A stretch of DNA of 64,000 nucleotides. Source: Escherichia phage vB_EcoM_SYGD1. The stretch is from sequence record MW883059, one strand, 5' to 3'. This document shows, in pieces, positions 1,052-14,316 of this stretch (positions are counted from its first letter, which is position 1; each line of letters opens with the position of its first letter). Both the position numbers and the translations under genes were made by a program. The notes beneath the pieces were generated by a model that did no database searches, had not been told where the DNA came from, and saw only the letters and a program-made list of their open reading frames with translations.

Positions 1052-1211
1052 AGCTTTATACGGAGTTTGATATAATGATATTTCTTGGATATGTGATACT
1101 TTTTCTCGCATTTTATCTATTCACTAGAGCATGTTGGATTGGGTTCTTTAGCACTCCAGATGGATTTATTTCAATAATTTTATTTTGCATTTCAATGACG
1201 GTTCTTGATAT

Positions 1212-2231
1212 ATGAAAATTTTAAATTTAGGTGATTGGCATTTAGGCGTTAAAGCTGATGATGAGTGGATTCAATCAATCCAGTTGGATGGAATTAAGCA
1301 AGCGATAGAATATTCTAAGAAAAACGGAATTACTACATGGATTCAATACGGTGATATTTTTGATGTGCGAAAAGCAATCACACATAAAACTATGGAGTTC
1401 GCCCGTGAAATAGTTCAAATGCTTGATGACGTTGGAATCACATTACATACTATTGTAGGAAATCACGATCTCCACTATAAAAATGTAATGCATCCAAATG
1501 CTTCTACTGAGCTTTTGGCTAAATATCCTAATGTTAAAGTATATGATAAGCCTACTACAGTAGATTTTGACGGATGTTTGATTGATTTAATTCCTTGGAT
1601 GTGCGAAGAAAATACTGGTGAAATTCTTGAACATATCAAAACTTCATCTGCTTCTTTTTGTGTCGGTCACTGGGAGCTGAATGGATTTTATTTTTATAAA
1701 GGAATGAAATCTCACGGTCTTGAACCTGATTTCCTTAAGACTTATAAAGAAGTGTGGTCTGGTCACTTCCATACTATCTCTGAGGCTGCTAACGTCAGAT
1801 ATATTGGGACACCATGGACACTAACTGCAGGTGACGAGAATGACCCTCGCGGGTTCTGGATGTTTGATACAGAAACAGAACGAATGGAATTTATTCCAAA
1901 CAACACTACTTGGCATCGTCGAATTCAATACCCATTTAAGGGAAAAATTGACTATAAAGATTTTACAAATCTATCAGTACGTGTTATAGTAACTGAGGTA
2001 GACAAAAATCTGACGAAGTTCGAATCTGAACTAGAAAAAGTTGTACATTCATTACGAGTTGTGTCAAAGATTGATAACTCTGTCGAGTCAGATGATAGTG
2101 AAGAAGTTGAAGTTCAATCTCTTCAGACATTGATGGAAGAATACATTAATGCAATTCCAGACATCACTGATTCTGATCGCGAAGCACTTATTCAATATGC
2201 AAATCAGTTATATGTAGAGGCAACACAATGA
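1212..2231 (+). CDS. 47: gp47 recombination endonuclease subunit (Mre11-like phosphoesterase)
   Basis: 339 aa; phosphoesterase motifs (LGDWHLG, GNHD, GHxH); position upstream of gp46 as in T4. Confidence 0.9.
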   Translation: MKILNLGDWHLGVKADDEWIQSIQLDGIKQAIEYSKKNGITTWIQYGDIFDVRKAITHKTMEFAREIVQMLDDVGITLHTIVGNHDLHYKNVMHPNASTELLAKYPNVKVYDKPTTVDFDGCLIDLIPWMCEENTGEILEHIKTSSASFCVGHWELNGFYFYKGMKSHGLEPDFLKTYKEVWSGHFHTISEAANVRYIGTPWTLTAGDENDPRGFWMFDTETERMEFIPNNTTWHRRIQYPFKGKIDYKDFTNLSVRVIVTEVDKNLTKFESELEKVVHSLRVVSKIDNSVESDDSEEVEVQSLQTLMEEYINAIPDITDSDREALIQYANQLYVEATQ

Positions 2232-2491
2232 CTTTTGATGAATTTAAAAATGATATGATGAGTCAGCATTTTGAATGCGAAGTAAAAGATGATATTGGTC
2301 ATAAAGAAATTATTGAATATTGGTTTGAACCACTAGAGGTTGAAGATAATTGTATTAAAAAGGTCACGGTCTGCACTGACTGGGCTGTATCTTTTAACTT
2401 CAACATTTTAGATAATGACACACCTAAATCATTACAAGATATGGCTGTATCTTGTATTAAGGATGCATACTGTGAAGTTTTCGACATTTGA
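2228..2491 (+). CDS. hypothetical small protein
   Basis: ORF start overlaps the gene 47 stop (ATGA); no recognisable motif. Confidence 0.4.
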   Translation: MTFDEFKNDMMSQHFECEVKDDIGHKEIIEYWFEPLEVEDNCIKKVTVCTDWAVSFNFNILDNDTPKSLQDMAVSCIKDAYCEVFDI

Positions 2492-2678
2492 CATTAACGA
2501 TGAATTCATAGCAAATATTGATTACGCCGAAGAAGATTCTAGATATGTTGGAATAATTTATATCACATCAAAAGCAGCACAAGGTGTTGTTTGCATGGCT
2601 GAATTTGATGAATACTTTTTAGATTATGATGATATGATAGAATGGTCTAAAAGATACATTAAAAGGAATCTTTTGTGA
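2415..2678 (+). CDS. hypothetical small protein (start uncertain, overlaps previous ORF in another frame)
   Basis: ORF only; could also be the second half of a frameshifted gene. Confidence 0.3.
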   Translation: MTHLNHYKIWLYLVLRMHTVKFSTFDINDEFIANIDYAEEDSRYVGIIYITSKAAQGVVCMAEFDEYFLDYDDMIEWSKRYIKRNLL

Positions 2679-3529
2679 AGAATTTTAAACTTGATATTAA
2701 TAATGAATTTTTAATAAAAGAATTAGTTGAAAAATTAGCGTTGAGTGAAGAAGACGCCAAGTTTTACATTAATTTTATTTCTATGAATTCAACTGTTAAA
2801 ACTCTAGGTAAAACGGAAGCACATCACGTGCTTCCTAAATCAATATTTCCTGAATATTTAAAATCTACATGGAATTTAGTTAATTTAAGTCATTTTAATC
2901 ATTTCAAAGCACATTTCTTATTAGCAAAAGGTAAAAATGGAAAAATGCTAAATGCTTTAAATAGAATGATGTCAGGAAAAACATATAAAAATTTATCTTT
3001 AGCCGAAGTTGATTTAATAGCTGCTGAATATAGTTTTATAAAACAAGATGTAAGTGACATAATATCAAAAAGGCTTCAACAGTATTATTCAAATCCGCAA
3101 AATAGAAATGCTGCTAGAGAAAGGGCATTAAAATATTTTTCAGTAGCAAAAAATAGAAAAGATAACAAAGAAAGATTAAATAATTTTAAAACAAAACAAA
3201 AAATTTCAATGGCTTCAAGGGAATGGTTTAATAACGAAGAAAATAAAATTAAACACCAAAGGGCTGTTCGCGCTGCTTTATCAAAACCTGAATATAAAAT
3301 AGCTATATCAAATTCAGTAGCTGCTAGTTGGAAAAATCCGGAGATTAGAAAAGCTCATATAGCATCTCGACGAAAAGGCTATCATTGGGATAATAAAGAT
3401 AAATTGTATGAATTGTGGATATCATATAATCGTCCTAAACATGTGATGTTTAGGAAAATGCTAGTTAAGAATGGATATCCAATAGAGGCTTCATTACAGG
3501 CTTTAGTTAAAGAATTTTCTTCATTGTGA
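2675..3529 (+). CDS. HNH-family homing endonuclease-like protein (Mob-like) inserted between genes 47 and 46
   Basis: 284 aa, basic and Lys/Asn-rich; EAHHVLPKS ... NLVNLSHFNHFKAH resembles the HNH core (HH ... N ... H); GTG start overlaps the upstream stop. Confidence 0.55.
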   Translation: MKNFKLDINNEFLIKELVEKLALSEEDAKFYINFISMNSTVKTLGKTEAHHVLPKSIFPEYLKSTWNLVNLSHFNHFKAHFLLAKGKNGKMLNALNRMMSGKTYKNLSLAEVDLIAAEYSFIKQDVSDIISKRLQQYYSNPQNRNAARERALKYFSVAKNRKDNKERLNNFKTKQKISMASREWFNNEENKIKHQRAVRAALSKPEYKIAISNSVAASWKNPEIRKAHIASRRKGYHWDNKDKLYELWISYNRPKHVMFRKMLVKNGYPIEASLQALVKEFSSL

Positions 3530-3544
3530 ACAATTGGATACAGA

Positions 3545-5233
3545 ATGAAATCATTTAAACTTAATAGAGTAAAATATAAAAATATAATGTCAGTTGGTCA
3601 AAATGGAGTTGACATTCAACTAGATAAGGTTCAAAAAACTCTTATTACTGGACGAAATGGCGGTGGTAAGTCTACTATGTTAGAAGCCATCACATTTGGG
3701 CTTTTCGGCAAGCCATTCCGTGATGTAAAGAAAGGTCAATTAATAAACAGCACAAATAAGAAAGAACTTTTAGTTGAACTGTGGATGGAATATGATGAGA
3801 AAAAGTACTATATCAAAAGAGGACAAAAACCAAACGTTTTCGAAATCACCGTTAACGGTACACGTCTTAATGAATCTGCCAGCAGTAAAGATTTCCAAGC
3901 AGAATTTGAACAGCTTATCGGAATGTCATATGCCAGTTTCAAGCAGATTGTTGTCCTTGGTACAGCAGGGTATACCCCTTTCATGGGTTTGTCGACCCCT
4001 GCGCGAAGAAAGCTTGTGGAAGACCTGCTTGAGGTAGGAACATTAGCTGAAATGGATAAGCTTAATAAAGCACTAATACGTGAATTAAATTCACAAAACC
4101 AAGTACTTGATGTTAAAAAAGATAGTATTATCCAACAAATTAAAATATATAATGATAACGTTGAACGCCAGAAAAAATTAACTGGTGATAACCTTACTCG
4201 TCTGCAGAATATGTATGACGATTTGGCAAAGGAAGCTAGAACGCTAAAATCGGAAATAGAAGAAGCTAATGAAAGATTAGTTAATATTGTTTTGGATGAA
4301 GACCCGACTGATGCATTTAATAAAATCGGTCAAGAAGCAGTTTTAATTAAATCAAAAATTGACTCGTATAATAAAGTCATTAATATGTATCACGAAGGTG
4401 GATTATGTCCAACCTGTTTGTCACAATTAAGTTCCGGTGATAAAGTTGTTTCTAAAATTAAAGATAAAGTTTCTGAATGCACGCATTCGTTTGAACAGCT
4501 TTCAACACATCGTGATAATTTAAAAGTTCTTGTTGATGAATACCGAGATAATATTAAAACCCAGCAGACGTTGGCAAATGATATTCGCAATAAAAAGCAA
4601 TCTCTAATCACGACGGTAGATAAAGCTAAAAAAGTTAAAGCAGCTATAGAAAAAGCATCATCTGAGTTTATTGACCATGCTGATGAAATAGCACTGCTTC
4701 AAGAAGAACTTGATAAAATTGTTAAGACAAAAACTAATTTAGTAATGGAAAAATACCACAGAGGAATTTTGACTGATATGCTCAAAGATTCTGGTATTAA
4801 AGGTGCTATTATTAAAAAGTACATTCCATTATTTAATAAGCAGATTAACCATTATCTTAAAATAATGGAAGCGGATTATGTGTTTACATTAGATGAAGAA
4901 TTTAATGAGACAATTAAATCCCGTGGTCGTGAAGATTTTAGTTATGCTTCATTTAGTCAAGGTGAAAAAGCACGAATTGATATTGCTCTTTTATTTACTT
5001 GGCGTGATATTGCTGAAAAAGTTTCAGGTGTTAAAATAAGTTGTTTATTTCTTGATGAAGTGTATGACGGTGCATTTGATGCTGAAGGTATTAAAAATGT
5101 GGCTAAAATTTTAGATGGTTTGAAGGATACCAACTTCTTCATAATTTCGCATAAAGACCATGACCCACAGGAATATGGTCAGCACATTCAAATGGAAAAA
5201 GTTGGTAGATTTAGTTTAGCTAAGATTAGCTAG
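3545..5233 (+). CDS. 46: gp46 recombination endonuclease ATPase subunit (Rad50/SbcC-like)
   Basis: 562 aa; Walker A GRNGGGKST near the N-terminus, long coiled-coil middle with CPTC zinc hook, Walker B/D-loop LFLDEVYDGAFD near the C-terminus. Confidence 0.9.
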   Translation: MKSFKLNRVKYKNIMSVGQNGVDIQLDKVQKTLITGRNGGGKSTMLEAITFGLFGKPFRDVKKGQLINSTNKKELLVELWMEYDEKKYYIKRGQKPNVFEITVNGTRLNESASSKDFQAEFEQLIGMSYASFKQIVVLGTAGYTPFMGLSTPARRKLVEDLLEVGTLAEMDKLNKALIRELNSQNQVLDVKKDSIIQQIKIYNDNVERQKKLTGDNLTRLQNMYDDLAKEARTLKSEIEEANERLVNIVLDEDPTDAFNKIGQEAVLIKSKIDSYNKVINMYHEGGLCPTCLSQLSSGDKVVSKIKDKVSECTHSFEQLSTHRDNLKVLVDEYRDNIKTQQTLANDIRNKKQSLITTVDKAKKVKAAIEKASSEFIDHADEIALLQEELDKIVKTKTNLVMEKYHRGILTDMLKDSGIKGAIIKKYIPLFNKQINHYLKIMEADYVFTLDEEFNETIKSRGREDFSYASFSQGEKARIDIALLFTWRDIAEKVSGVKISCLFLDEVYDGAFDAEGIKNVAKILDGLKDTNFFIISHKDHDPQEYGQHIQMEKVGRFSLAKIS

Positions 5234-5942
5234 GTTTATATTTACAATTATCATTATGCCATCTTGATAAATTTCCGAAAGTGGTAACTTTACCACAATG
5301 GACGCAAGTACCAGTCTTTTCAGTTTTCTTGCGTCCATTTGGATTTTTCTTGCAGAAATTTCTATGCGCTGCGATAACGCATTTCTTGCCTATCATTCCG
5401 CAGAATTCGCAGGATGTTTCTTCAAGAACGATTGCTTTAAGCCCGTTTGAGATATTATTTCTGTGTTCTTTAGACATTGGCGGTCTAACTTTAGGATTGG
5501 GGTGATTTGGGCAGTTATCAAAATGCCATCGATTCATATTCCCGCTTAATCCAGACTTACCGCAATGTGGACAAGTTAGTCTTGCTTTATTAGCTACTGC
5601 ATCGGACATTTTCTTTCGTGTCTCTTGGGAGAACTCTTTATTCTTTTCTATTTCCCAGAGTTTACGACGAATCCAGCCGAAAGTTTTATTGTTACGTTTA
5701 GCGTATTTCGTAGAAACTGTCATCATGTTAGCAGCATAGACTAATTTTGGTTCAGAAGGATAAATTTTTACTAAAAGTTGATGAGCTACATAGTGCTCTT
5801 CTGGTGTTAAATCTACTAAGTTTGAAGCATCATCGCTGCCATTTAAACAGCGTGGTATAATGTGATGAGATTCAGTATAGCAATCAAGTTTTCGAGATTT
5901 AGCATTAGAGATTAACTTTTCATAAATTAGTTTATAATTCAT
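5226..5942 (-). CDS. HNH homing endonuclease with three C-terminal zinc-finger repeats, antisense to flanking early genes
   Basis: 238 aa; N-terminal HNH core YTESHHIIPRCLNGSDDASNLVDLTPEEHYVAH; three repeats of CxxCG...(R/N)WHxDNC; 3' end overlaps the gene 46 stop by 8 nt on the opposite strand. Confidence 0.75.
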   Translation of the reverse strand: MNYKLIYEKLISNAKSRKLDCYTESHHIIPRCLNGSDDASNLVDLTPEEHYVAHQLLVKIYPSEPKLVYAANMMTVSTKYAKRNNKTFGWIRRKLWEIEKNKEFSQETRKKMSDAVANKARLTCPHCGKSGLSGNMNRWHFDNCPNHPNPKVRPPMSKEHRNNISNGLKAIVLEETSCEFCGMIGKKCVIAAHRNFCKKNPNGRKKTEKTGTCVHCGKVTTFGNLSRWHNDNCKYKPS

Positions 5943-5993
5943 AACATATCCTTTTGATACAGCGAGTGATAAACATATTTATACGGAGGAACT

Positions 5994-6185
5994 GTGGCAG
6001 AATATTCAACTGGACAGCATCTATTAACTATTCCTGAAATAAAACGATATATTCTGAGAAATAATTTTTCTAATGAAGAGCATATAGTTACTGAATCTAT
6101 GCTTAAGAATGCATTTAAATCAGAATATACGAAAATAATGTCCAACAGGAATGAAGCTTGGACTGTTACTGATTATTATGACTAA
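5994..6185 (+). CDS. hypothetical small protein (T4 45.2 position)
   Basis: 63-aa ORF upstream of rpbA; position only. Confidence 0.35.
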   Translation: MAEYSTGQHLLTIPEIKRYILRNNFSNEEHIVTESMLKNAFKSEYTKIMSNRNEAWTVTDYYD

Positions 6186-6194
6186 AGGTGTATT

Positions 6195-6584
6195 ATGACT
6201 AAAATTACTGTGAATTATACTGTTGATGTAAAAGATATTCAGCCAAAACACGTGCGTTCTGAATCAAATCCACAAAACCAAAATAAAATTCGTCGAGCAT
6301 GGGTTTTGTCTCTTTCTAATAACGCAATGGAAGTTATTCAGAACAAAATTAAATCTGCACCTGCTCGTCATGCGTATTATGAAGCTATCGATCGTGAAGT
6401 GAGTGATAAATGGATTGAACTGATGCGCAAACATACGGCAGAATCTCTAAACGCTGGTGCCAAATTTATTATGACTTCATGCGGTGAACGCCTTGAAGAT
6501 GATTATTGCGGTAATGCAGATGAACGTCTAATTGTTGCTGCTCAAATTGTTGCGGAAACAATTGCTGCTGATTTTAATCGTTAA
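6195..6584 (+). CDS. rpbA: RNA polymerase-binding protein RpbA
   Basis: 129 aa, matching the T4 RpbA size; located immediately upstream of gene 45. Confidence 0.65.
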
Positions 6585-6639
6585 TTGCTTTATTAAATTA
6601 GTTATAAAATTAAATCTCATTTGAATTGAAGGAAATTAC

Positions 6640-7326
6640 ATGAAACTGTCTAAAGATACTACTGCTCTGCTCAAAAATTTCGCTACTATTAACTCTGGTA
6701 TTATGCTTAAATCCGGTCAATTTATTATGACTCGCGCGGTTAATGGTACAACTTATGCAGAAGCAAATATTTCTGACACTATTGATTTTGATGTAGCGAT
6801 TTACGATTTGAACGGTTTTCTTGGTATTCTGTCTCTCGTTAATGATGATGCAGAAATTTCCCAGTCAGAAGATGGTAATATTAAAATTGCTGACGCCCGT
6901 TCAACAATTTTTTGGCCAGCAGCTGATCCGAGTACAGTAGTTGCTCCTAATAAACCAATTCCATTCCCGGTAGCATCTGTTGTTACTGAAATTAAAGCTG
7001 AAGACCTTCAACAGCTGTTGCGTGTATCTCGCGGTCTGCAGATTGATACAATTGCTATCACAGTAAAAGAAGGTAAAATTGTAATTAACGGTTTTAACAA
7101 AGTAGAAGATTCTGCTTTGACCCGTGTTAAATATTCTTTGACTCTTGGTGATTATGATGGTGAAAATACATTTAATTTCATTATCAATATGGCAAATATG
7201 AAAATGCAACCAGGAAATTATAAACTTCTGCTTTGGGCAAAAGGTAAACAAGGCGCTGCTAAATTTGAAGGTGAACACGCGAATTATGTAGTAGCTCTTG
7301 AAGCTGATTCTACCCACGACTTTTAA
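6640..7326 (+). CDS. 45: gp45 sliding clamp
   Basis: 228 aa; N-terminus MKLSKDTTALLKNFATINSGIMLKSGQ matches my recollection of T4 gp45. Confidence 0.9.
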   Translation: MKLSKDTTALLKNFATINSGIMLKSGQFIMTRAVNGTTYAEANISDTIDFDVAIYDLNGFLGILSLVNDDAEISQSEDGNIKIADARSTIFWPAADPSTVVAPNKPIPFPVASVVTEIKAEDLQQLLRVSRGLQIDTIAITVKEGKIVINGFNKVEDSALTRVKYSLTLGDYDGENTFNFIINMANMKMQPGNYKLLLWAKGKQGAAKFEGEHANYVVALEADSTHDF

Positions 7327-7327
7327 T

Positions 7328-7345
7328 AAAGGGCTTCGGCCCTTT
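7328..7345 (+). terminator. intrinsic terminator hairpin (AAAGGGC-TTCG-GCCCTTT)
   Basis: Same UUCG-tetraloop hairpin as at 1034, followed by T-rich tract, after gene 45. Confidence 0.55.
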
Positions 7346-7362
7346 ATAATTTACACTAAAAC

Positions 7363-8337
7363 TTGAATGAGGAAATTATGATTACTGTAAATGAAAAAGA
7401 ACACATTCTTGAACAGAAATATCGTCCATCTACTATCGATGAATGTATTCTTCCCGCCTTTGATAAAGAAACCTTTAAATCTATTACAAGTAAAGGTAAG
7501 ATTCCACATATTATTCTTCATTCTCCTTCTCCAGGAACAGGTAAAACAACCGTAGCAAAAGCATTGTGTCATGATGTAAATGCTGATATGATGTTTGTGA
7601 ATGGGTCAGATTGTAAAATTGATTTCGTTCGCGGTCCTTTGACTAATTTTGCTAGTGCAGCTTCATTTGATGGTCGTCAAAAAGTAATCGTTATTGATGA
7701 ATTTGACCGTTCAGGGTTAGCAGAGTCTCAGCGACATCTTCGTTCCTTTATGGAAGCTTATAGTTCAAACTGTAGTATTATTATTACTGCTAACAATATT
7801 GATGGTATTATTAAACCACTTCAGTCACGCTGCCGAGTTATTACGTTCGGTCAACCGACCGATGAAGATAAAATTGAAATGATGAAGCAGATGATTCGTC
7901 GATTGACTGAAATCTGTAAGCATGAAGGAATTGCTATAGCTGATATGAAAGTTGTAGCAGCTTTGGTTAAAAAGAATTTTCCTGATTTTCGTAAAACTAT
8001 CGGCGAGCTCGATAGTTATTCATCTAAAGGTGTTTTGGATGCTGGTATTTTATCACTGGTTACTAACGATCGTGGTGCTATTGATGATGTTCTTGAATCT
8101 CTCAAAAATAAAGATGTTAAACAGCTCAGAGCTTTAGCACCAAAATATGCAGCTGATTATTCGTGGTTCGTAGGTAAACTTGCCGAAGAAATTTATACAC
8201 GCGTAACTCCGCAAAGTATTATTCGTATGTATGAAATTGTTGGTGAAAATAACCAGTATCATGGAATTGCGGCTAATACGGAATTACATTTAGCATATCT
8301 TTTCATTCAATTGGCATGCGAAATGCAGTGGAAGTGA
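7363..8337 (+). CDS. 44: gp44 clamp-loader large subunit (AAA+ ATPase)
   Basis: 324 aa; Walker [11 protein letters not shown], Walker [12 protein letters not shown] motif (LQSRCRVI). Confidence 0.9.
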
Positions 8338-12943: not shown

Positions 12944-13684
12944 ATGATTAGTGACTCTATGACAGTTGAAGAAATCCGTCTTCATTTGGGGCTTGCATTA
13001 AAGGAAAAAGATTTCGTAGTTGATAAAACTGGCGTTAAAACTATTGAAATTATTGGCGCATCATTTGTAGCAGATGAACCGTTTATTTTTGGCGCTCTTA
13101 ATGATGAATACATTCAGCGTGAACTTGAATGGTATAAATCTAAAAGTTTGTTTGTTAAAGATATTCCGGGTGAAACACCAAAGATTTGGCAACAGGTAGC
13201 ATCTTCTAAAGGCGAAATTAACTCGAATTATGGTTGGGCTATCTGGTCAGAAGATAACTATGCCCAGTATGATATGTGTTTAGCTGAGCTTGGTCAAAAT
13301 CCTGATTCTCGACGTGGTATCATGATTTATACTCGTCCATCCATGCAATTTGACTACAATAAAGATGGCATGTCAGATTTCATGTGTACGAATACAGTAC
13401 AGTACCTGATTCGTGATAAGAAAGTCAATGCAGTAGTTAACATGAGAAGTAATGATTGTTGGGCAGGCTATCGTAATGATTATGCATGGCAAAAATACGT
13501 ATTAGATAAATTAGTATCTGATTTGAATACAGGCGACCCGTCGCGGCAATATAAAGCAGGTTCTATTATATGGAATGTTGGAAGTCTTCATGTGTACGAA
13601 AATCAATTTTATTTAGTTGACCATTGGTGGAACACCGGTGAAACTCACATTGCTAAAAAGGATTATACCGGAAAATGGAAGTAA
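12944..13684 (+). CDS. 42: gp42 dCMP hydroxymethylase
   Basis: 246 aa, thymidylate-synthase-like fold; same length and position as T4 gp42. Confidence 0.9.
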   Translation: MISDSMTVEEIRLHLGLALKEKDFVVDKTGVKTIEIIGASFVADEPFIFGALNDEYIQRELEWYKSKSLFVKDIPGETPKIWQQVASSKGEINSNYGWAIWSEDNYAQYDMCLAELGQNPDSRRGIMIYTRPSMQFDYNKDGMSDFMCTNTVQYLIRDKKVNAVVNMRSNDCWAGYRNDYAWQKYVLDKLVSDLNTGDPSRQYKAGSIIWNVGSLHVYENQFYLVDHWWNTGETHIAKKDYTGKWK

Positions 13685-14316
13685 ATGTTCCACATGTTTA
13701 TAAGTATAAACATCCTAAAACTAAAAAGTGGTATATAGGAAGTCATGATGGTCACAACCCGAATTATGATGGTTCGGGTGTAGTTTGGCAGCATGCTAAA
13801 AAGAAATATGGAATAAAATCCTTTAATAAAGAAATATTATATGAAGGACCGATGTTTAGACAAGTTGAAGAAATTATTTTAACTTGTTTAGATGCTGCTA
13901 ATTGCCCGGATTCATATAATTTAAAGAATGAAGCGTGGGGAGGAAGTTTTCCAGGTAAATTAAATGGAATGTACGGTAAGAAACTATCTCCAGAAGAAAG
14001 ATATAAATGTGGAAATGCCTTTCGTGGAATCAAGCGTCCTGATCATTCTAAAAGAATGAAAGGCGAAGGTAATCCAATGTATGGTAAAAATGAGCAGGCA
14101 TATGGAATTATAAATCGAGCAAAGGAAAATTCTGGTAAAACTTATGAAGAAATTTTTGGCGCAGAAAAAGCTAAAATAATTAAAGAAACGATGTCTAAAA
14201 ATCGTAAAGGAAAACCTCATAATTTGATAGAAAAAATATGTCCGCATTGCGGACTAAAAGGACGTGGGCCAAATATGACAAGATACCATTTTGACAAATG
14301 TAAGGCACTTAAATGA
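13675..14316 (+). CDS. GIY-YIG homing endonuclease (Seg-like) with C-terminal zinc finger
   Basis: N-terminal GIY-YIG motifs VYKYKH ... KKWYIGSH; C-terminal CPHCGLKGRGPNMTRYHFDKC; start overlaps the gene 42 stop. Confidence 0.7.
   Translation: MEVNVPHVYKYKHPKTKKWYIGSHDGHNPNYDGSGVVWQHAKKKYGIKSFNKEILYEGPMFRQVEEIILTCLDAANCPDSYNLKNEAWGGSFPGKLNGMYGKKLSPEERYKCGNAFRGIKRPDHSKRMKGEGNPMYGKNEQAYGIINRAKENSGKTYEEIFGAEKAKIIKETMSKNRKGKPHNLIEKICPHCGLKGRGPNMTRYHFDKCKALK

Follow-up and report, generated by a model that had tools for sequence, protein, structure and literature searches.

In intronless homing, the product of a free-standing homing endonuclease gene (HEG) cuts a neighbouring conserved gene in a phage that lacks the HEG, and repair co-converts the flanking markers (PMC2988022, PMC2993671). 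Among the HEGs of phage T4, the GIY-YIG genes segF and segG, from the regions of genes 56 and 32, encode enzymes with demonstrated cleavage and marker exclusion (PMC2988022, PMC2993671). Promoters specific to HEGs are of the middle or late type; no promoter can be recognised for segD, the sole T4 HEG that is not co-oriented with its neighbours, and its transcription is believed to be minimal (Edgell et al. 2010, PMC2988022). Here we examine two candidate HEGs, ORF1 and ORF2, that bracket gene 46 in a 64,000-nt stretch of DNA from Escherichia phage vB_EcoM_SYGD1 (sequence record MW883059), referred to below as the window. In our judgement the arrangement very probably reflects two unrelated insertions of different free-standing HNH endonuclease genes of the Mob type, one at each end of gene 46, that were combined by recombination among Tequatroviruses.

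By megablast, the genomes nearest to the window are all Tequatrovirus: Escherichia phages N2 (98.4%), Aplg8, LF73P1, G28, RB51 and RB68. The plus-strand gene block of the window is T4-like and reads a-gt, 47, 46.2, 46.1, 46, 45.2, rpbA, 45, 44. A preliminary description of this DNA had placed gene 46 between a plus-strand ORF of 284 aa and a minus-strand ORF of 238 aa that overlaps the gene 46 stop by 8 nt, and the coordinates, the lengths and the overlap (5226-5233) all hold. The three genes are as follows:

2675-3529, plus strand: ORF1, 284 aa, a predicted free-standing Mob-type HNH endonuclease gene with a GTG start
3545-5233, plus strand: gene 46, 562 aa, the Rad50/SbcC-like recombination nuclease subunit (families AAA_23, SMC_N and PHROG 77)
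5226-5942, minus strand: ORF2, 238 aa, a predicted free-standing Mob-type HNH endonuclease gene, convergent with gene 46

Both ORFs are free-standing, outside any intron or intein. ORF1 lies between 46.1 and 46, reaching into the first codons of 46, and ORF2 lies between 46 and 45.2, antisense to the gene block. Gene 46 is the host gene, and both of its ends have been remodelled by the two elements.

Comparison with relatives lacking the insertions, which had been proposed as a check, defined both insertion sites. We aligned the window with T4 (neither ORF), T2 (ORF1 only), RB32 (ORF2 only), and RB51 and N2 (both), and the junctions of both insertions were clean and sharp. A megablast search with positions 1200-7400 yielded 503 phage records at 95-99% identity, and each site was surveyed with its concatenated flanks as the query. 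The 46/45.2 site had a uniform empty span in 443 records and was split by an insert in about 60 others; ORF2 was present at an identity of at least 95% in 59 records (~12% of ~503). At the 46.1/46 site the span was either 940 bp, when empty, or 1808-1817 bp, when ORF1 was present, and no other span was found. ORF1 was carried by 8 of 53 sampled records and, by TBLASTN, by about 70 records (~14% of ~503). Among the Tequatrovirus records sampled, no other kind of insert was found at either site.

Both ORFs were found together in 11 records, corresponding to seven phages, where 8.3 would be expected if they were independent, and the association was not significant (Fisher p 0.16-0.32). We conclude that these are two independent, optional elements, each at a site with two states, and that their joint presence around gene 46 therefore arose by chance. 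Sporadic presence among near-identical genomes and precise boundaries, features expected of genes of the Mob and Seg class, were found for both ORFs, and the reading frames of both are intact here and in most carriers. The suggestion in the preliminary description that gene 46 is a homing hotspot is weakly supported: the bracketing is coincidental and neither site has been visited by several elements, and what stands in favour of the suggestion is that a hypervariable 3' end of gene 46 adjoins ORF2. Elsewhere in the gene block, phage N2 has an extra 295-aa ORF between rpbA and gene 45 (L005, 6882-7769) that is without a counterpart in the window or in RB51 and is probably another optional insertion.

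Both genes are of a known kind and are already annotated in RB32, RB51, T2 and T6-type genomes. The RB32 copy of ORF2, RB32ORF054w, is entered as [quoted passage not shown]; the note "similar to mobB" is also given for ORF2 in the RB51 record, RefSeq copies are labelled "homing endonuclease", and the phage N2 record annotates the ORF1 coding sequence as a homing endonuclease. A published tally of HEGs by phage and class, in which the genes are unnamed, lists one "other HNH" gene in T2, two mob-like genes in RB32, and one mob-like plus one other HNH gene in RB51 (Petrov et al. 2010, PMC2993671). These counts would be consistent with ORF1 and ORF2 being among the tallied genes.

The closest described counterparts are the Mob genes of T4. 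Like MobB, MobC and MobE, both ORFs have the same type of N-terminal HNH domain, and the genes similarly are free-standing between essential genes and sporadic among T-even phages. The nearest relative of ORF1, at 36% identity, even occupies the mobC site between nrdD and nrdG. There are also clear differences. The sites of ORF1 and ORF2 are 46.1/46 and 46/45.2, sequence identity to the T4 Mob proteins is just about 30%, and ORF1 begins at the start codon of its host gene. ORF2 is antisense, whereas the mob genes of T4 run in the same direction as the genes around them (PMC2988022), and the C-terminal half of ORF2 consists of three zinc ribbons, with no recognisable NUMOD3 repeats.

Several lines of evidence indicate that ORF1 and ORF2 both carry a predicted Mob-type HNH nuclease domain. 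Both matched PHROG 655, "homing endonuclease" (ORF1 E 6.5e-43, ORF2 E 8.6e-69), and PHROG 12434, "HNH endonuclease" (E 1.5e-14 and 1.6e-10, respectively). The two proteins align with each other by BLASTP across the motif region (E 1e-5), and hhalign of their family alignments matched the N-terminal ~100 residues (98.7%, E 2.8e-16). The H-H...N...H...H motif is formed by H50, H51, N67, H76 and H80 in ORF1, invariant across 7 relatives, and by H26, H27, N41, H50 and H54 in ORF2, invariant across 34 relatives. The earlier characterisation of both ORFs as HNH-like is thus borne out by the PHROG profiles, hhalign and the invariant motif, with weak support from Pfam: a Pfam search gave no match for ORF1, and Pfam HNH (PF01844) matched ORF2 at E 0.007 and 16.9 bits, under the 21.4 cutoff. 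Among relatives, a Pfam HNH match was found in 21 of 34 for ORF2 and was absent from 6 relatives of ORF1. The NUMOD-type DNA-binding modules, for which profile searches had been proposed, appear in relatives only. Neither NUMOD1 nor NUMOD3 was detected by Pfam in ORF1 or ORF2 themselves at E<=0.1; NUMOD3 is present in 22 of the 34 ORF2 relatives, and of the seven ORF1 relatives three have NUMOD1 or an I-HmuI-NUMOD-like module and one has NUMOD3. The HNH family to which ORF2 belongs has over 2,300 relatives, many with NUMOD3, and is typical of mobile endonucleases.

The structure model of ORF2 points the same way. The AlphaFold model of ORF2 has a mean pLDDT of 93, and a Foldseek search of viral predicted structures (BFVD) matched it to T4 MobB (P13329, E 1.9e-11) and MobC (P07074, E 3.9e-9); its best named matches there are predicted HNH homing endonucleases. 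In the model the HNH domain comprises residues 1 to ~100, and the C-terminal half has three CxxC...H...C zinc ribbons (~123-143, 178-197 and 213-233). For ORF1, confidence in the model is confined to the N-terminal nuclease domain. At the motif, both models contain the strand-strand-helix arrangement, with strands at 47-51 and 68-72 and a helix at 73-84 in ORF1 (pLDDT >=85), and strands at 24-27 and 42-45 and a helix at 47-60 in ORF2 (pLDDT 97). Whole-chain fold searches of the PDB gave no significant HNH match, PDB sequence searches gave nothing for ORF1 and marginal matches only for ORF2, and NCBIfam gave for ORF2 just a match to an IscB HNH region, far below threshold.

The zinc ribbons recur elsewhere in the window. 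A third optional endonuclease gene, at 13675-14316 on the plus strand between gene 42 and beta-gt, encodes a 213-aa Seg-like GIY-YIG protein (PHROG 314, E 1.8e-31) whose C-terminal zinc finger (CPHC...H...C) is matched by the zinc-ribbon profile of ORF2 (hmmsearch domain E 9.6e-12); one DNA-binding module is therefore common to different nuclease domains.

At the 5' end of gene 46, two features describe what has changed relative to genomes without ORF1:

2684-3553, plus strand: ORF1 insertion, 870 bp relative to T4 and RB32, from alignment gaps and junction sequences
3530-3547, plus strand: replacement initiation region of gene 46, with a new ATG preceded by a 15-nt spacer that contains a weak GGA

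The junctions place the ORF1 element inside the 5' end of gene 46, co-oriented with it. The GTG of ORF1 overlaps the TGA of 46.1 (GTGA, 2675-2678), and the same GTG is the start codon of gene 46 in T4 and RB32. There, gene 46 begins GTG AAG AAT TTT AAA CTT; in the window that start opens ORF1 (MKNFKL...), and gene 46 restarts 870 bp downstream as ATG AAA TCA TTT AAA CTT (MKSFKL...), with codons 2-3 recoded from AAG AAT to AAA TCA and the N-terminus changed from MKN to MKS. All ORF1-carrying genomes that we examined (the window, N2, RB51 and T2) have this ATG AAA TCA start. The boundaries of the insertion are ambiguous within a 9-bp direct repeat, TTTAAACTT (2684-2692 and 3554-3562), that belongs to a longer, imperfect repeat of 18 nt in which the first six codons of gene 46 are duplicated (2675-2692 and 3545-3562). 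ORF1 relatives start MNYDRF..., not MKNFKL, and the nearest of them lies at another site; gene 46 is therefore the origin of the first six ORF1 codons.

This structure suggests how the element could be expressed and kept without loss of the host gene. ORF1 would be translated from the original initiation site of gene 46, its GTG coupled to 46.1, and the cassette would provide a spacer and a fresh ATG, so that gene 46 would still be made. No TATAAATA motif, the octamer discussed below for ORF2, was found near ORF1 on the plus strand. The recoded codons leave just 9 bp of exact repeat, which should limit loss by repeat recombination, and the recoding also splits the sequence spanning the insertion point. 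The flanks of ORF1 are identical to T4. The site of the ORF1 enzyme, if it is active, most likely spans the insertion point, and a cut would be expected at or across the 46.1/46 junction.

Four further observations concern ORF1, its empty site and its relatives. The window copy has the changes D10N, S30F and P44L (within 2675-2810), which are not in N2, T2 or RB51. A palindrome with a 9-bp stem at 2815-2835 (GGAAGCAC-GTG... on the minus strand) exactly covers the codons of the catalytic His-His pair; it was flagged as terminator-like on the minus strand in a scan whose total was within shuffle expectation, and is probably due to chance. RB32 (L004), which has no ORF1, carries 10 substitutions in the 47 nt directly downstream of the empty site (equivalent to 3554-3608 of the window), a stretch across which T4 is identical to the window; this cluster may be a variant or resistant target allele. 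Finally, a metagenomic T4-like contig (L006, 1456-4840) contains a 181-aa nrdD fragment, a SegE-like GIY-YIG gene, a 335-aa ORF without a Pfam match and the ORF1 relative P0003; this arrangement resembles an nrdD gene that is interrupted or contains an intron, with endonuclease genes stacked together.

The ORF2 cassette has altered both of its neighbours. In the window the tail of gene 46 reads ...RFSLAKIS* (562 aa), versus ...RFTVMV* (560 aa) in T4 and T2; the 55-nt spacer that separates 46 from 45.2 in T4 and T2 is replaced; and the start of 45.2 is changed from ATG GAA to GTG GCA GAA. The empty spacer contains a MotA-box and TATAAT, annotated as a predicted middle promoter in the fPS-90 record, and these are removed by the cassette. 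The features upstream of ORF2 are:

5943-5998, unstranded: right end of the ORF2 cassette, which replaces the T4 46-45.2 spacer and rewrites the 45.2 start
5949-5953, minus strand: Shine-Dalgarno-like AAGGA, 6 nt upstream of the ORF2 ATG, with AAGGA also in Yersinia phage MHG19 and IMG/VR contig L010
5976-5983, minus strand: late-promoter motif TATAAATA, 33 nt upstream of the ORF2 ATG

The late genes of T4 run opposite to its early genes and are transcribed from TATAAATA promoters. As in T4 late promoters, where the motif lies at about -10, ORF2 has the octamer shortly upstream and on its own strand; on the other strand, the motif abuts the GGAGG ribosome-binding site of gene 45.2 (5985-5989). 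The octamer is not abundant, with 6 copies in the 64-kb window versus about 10 expected, and any one upstream stretch of 60 nt would contain it by chance with a probability of about 0.003-0.005. Of the four copies on the minus strand, three are followed, 23-34 nt downstream, by a long minus-strand gene: gene 34 (tail fibre), gene 36 and ORF2. The spacing between motif and gene at ORF2 is therefore that of genuine late genes. We infer that ORF2 is transcribed late, from this predicted promoter. Transcription in the late-gene direction would minimise conflict with the early and middle transcription of 46, 45.2 and 45.

The preliminary description had regarded the antisense placement as unusual and as calling for either a dedicated promoter or a special tolerance of convergent transcription. 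The first of these options finds a counterpart in the predicted late motif. Since ORF2 is expected to be expressed late and gene 46 early or middle, convergent transcription would be a small problem, and a late promoter on ORF2 would explain the placement without special tolerance. Nor is the orientation without precedent, as segD is already an antisense HEG in T4 (PMC2988022). Like segD, a GIY-YIG gene between genes 23 and 24, ORF2 is oriented against its neighbours. The two differ in nuclease family and in setting: segD is antisense to late genes and ORF2 to early and middle genes, and segD is without an identifiable promoter whereas a canonical late-promoter motif precedes ORF2 at the usual spacing. 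Antisense HEGs thus include a second kind, represented by ORF2, with a clear late-promoter motif. Intron-encoded HEGs offer another parallel in that they have their own late or middle promoters within an early region (PMC2988022), as ORF2 appears to have; unlike ORF2, they are co-oriented with the host gene, and their promoters overlap operator copies of the homing site, a similarity that was not found at ORF2.

Two further candidate elements at ORF2 were considered and rejected. For an I-TevI-style operator, the best match between the ORF2 promoter region and the T4 46/45.2 sequence was 14/20, equalled in 123 of 200 shuffles. A replacement MotA-type middle promoter within ORF2 on the plus strand (TTGCTTTA-N13-TATTAT, ~5432-5464) is not conserved in contigs L010 and L011 and is weak in MHG19. 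A scan of 2300-6300 for sigma-70 promoters and terminators was not above shuffle expectation.

An indication of how ORF2 might move comes from the adjoining end of gene 46:

5015-5233, plus strand: ORF2-linked gene 46 3' allele, ~220 nt, 21-25% diverged in nucleotide sequence from T4 and T2

In the rest of the region, divergence from T4 and T2 is about 1-3%. The allele encodes the Walker B, D-loop and H-loop region together with the different C-terminal tail. At an identity of at least 95% it is found in exactly 59 records, with two records at 80-90% and all others below 80%, and the contiguous block 5005-5998 is likewise found in exactly 59 records, equal to the count of ORF2 carriers. ORF2 and the diverged 3' end are completely linked (59/59 records), and the mobile unit of ORF2 is therefore about 5015-5998. 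This linkage of a predicted endonuclease gene to its flank fits the intronless homing described for SegF and SegG, GIY-YIG enzymes with demonstrated cleavage. We consider that the allele is probably a co-conversion or immunity tract. As the block fits co-conversion from a cut in the end of gene 46, the target of the ORF2 enzyme is predicted to lie there, and the linked allele would be resistant.

Taken together, these data fit a history in which two separate insertion events would have placed ORF1 and ORF2 at opposite ends of gene 46, and recombination among Tequatroviruses would then have joined both in the window genome. In a mixed infection, each enzyme would be expected to cut the allele free of its element, ORF2 acting within the last ~220 bp of gene 46 with the linked diverged allele as the resistant form, and recombinational repair would transfer the element, together with its flank, to the genome that was cut. 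For both ORFs we infer the nuclease activity, the target sites and the homing itself from sequence.

The segment 5015-5172 of gene 46 (residues ~491-543) is hypervariable in its own right. T4 and T2 differ there at 47 of 158 nt, compared with about 1% elsewhere, and among the Tequatroviruses without ORF2 the alleles form a graded series at 75-80% identity to the window.

In more distant T4-like phages the 46/45.2 site is also occupied by homologues of ORF2, again in antisense orientation. In Yersinia phage MHG19 the homologue has 63% identity (gp46, 65%), in IMG/VR contig L010 it has 64% (gp46, 69%), and in contigs L011-L013 it has 44% (gp46, 44%). The octamer TATAAATA is at -43/-44 from the ATG in MHG19 and L010, and CTAAATA is at the same place in L011-L013. 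The overlap between ORF2 and the gene 46 stop varies, from 8 nt here through 4 nt in both RB51 and MHG19 to an apparent lack of overlap in L010, and is probably incidental. In a partial comparison, the window-type 3' allele of gene 46 showed no clear affinity to the alleles beside the MHG19 and L010 homologues. Separately, the gene 47 homologue of MHG19 (L009, 6871-8586) is called at 571 aa versus 339 aa here, with a partial gp47 match, which points to inserted or fused sequence on the 5' side of the gene.

Several findings weigh against two homing insertions as the explanation of this locus. The Pfam HNH domain is absent for ORF1 and below threshold for ORF2, and PDB sequence and fold searches were uninformative. 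A literature search found no experimental work on ORF1 or ORF2, including RB32ORF054w. T4 and T2 differ by ~30% in the hypervariable segment and both are without ORF2, so that the diversity of this segment is not explained by ORF2 alone. No terminator was seen downstream of ORF2. Across T4-like phages, the divergence of the ORF2 homologues keeps pace with that of gp46, which looks like long vertical residence rather than recent spread. At ORF1 there is no diverged flank, T4 being identical on both sides, and nothing points to a resistant allele. Moreover, the T4 junction could equally have arisen by deletion between the 9-bp repeats, as the junctions cannot separate gain from loss.

These last points would suit a reading in which both genes are inactive or decaying relics, and in which ordinary recombination and deletion (at the 9-bp repeats in the case of ORF1), rather than ongoing homing, account for their presence pattern; the T4 junction would then be the product of a repeat-mediated deletion. 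ORF1 is indeed frameshifted, independently, in T2 (by a deletion of 2 nt) and in RB51/RB68 (by one of 1 nt), and the best database identity to window ORF1 is 97.9% aa, whereas ORF2 has 100%-identical copies in many phages. The Edgell review, for its part, gives the activity of T4 mobA-D as not determined (PMC2988022). We nevertheless regard this reading as unlikely. Frameshifts of this kind are the decay expected in the life cycle of a HEG, both ORFs are intact here and in most carriers, and their catalytic residues are invariant. For ORF2, the promoter motif and ribosome-binding site have been kept across alleles that are only 63-64% identical, and the gene is fully linked to a diverged flank, as co-conversion produces.

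The conserved placement of ORF2 raises a different question, whether it is a selfish element at all. It might be a domesticated late gene, encoding a nuclease or DNA-binding protein or giving an antisense transcript that damps 46 and 47. Its site, antisense orientation and late motif are common to phages whose gp46 is just 44-69% identical, its divergence tracks that of gp46, and no terminator was seen between ORF2 and gene 46. Against this, ORF2 is missing from ~88% of Tequatroviruses, including the fully viable T4, T2 and T6-type genomes; ORF2 is also a member of the large HNH family typical of mobile endonucleases, and there is no direct evidence of a host-beneficial role. Domestication therefore seems to us very improbable. 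A more tentative idea, possible although we doubt it, is that ORF2 is an ancient late antisense resident of the 46/45.2 junction whose nuclease would target the Walker-B/D-loop end of gene 46 in competitors, maintaining diverged "immunity" alleles, and whose unterminated late transcript might in addition extend antisense over genes 46 and 47. If true, this would account for at least three gene 46 allele classes, 20-30% apart, in genomes that are otherwise 97-99% identical.

On the account that we favour, two unrelated insertions joined by recombination, an arrangement that looks odd at first is ordinary T-even biology, in which conserved genes of replication and recombination have optional HEGs at their borders. 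The two elements would illustrate different solutions to living beside an essential gene: a promoter-less HEG that captures the start codon and translational coupling of that gene and hands it a new start, and an antisense HEG that avoids a clash with early transcription by means of a late promoter. In the case of ORF2, a mobile unit of ~1 kb always carries the diverged end of gene 46, and this predicts where the enzyme would cut. As genes 46 and 47 are needed for the recombinational repair that homing uses, elements seated on gene 46 are a neat case of this biology rather than a new question.

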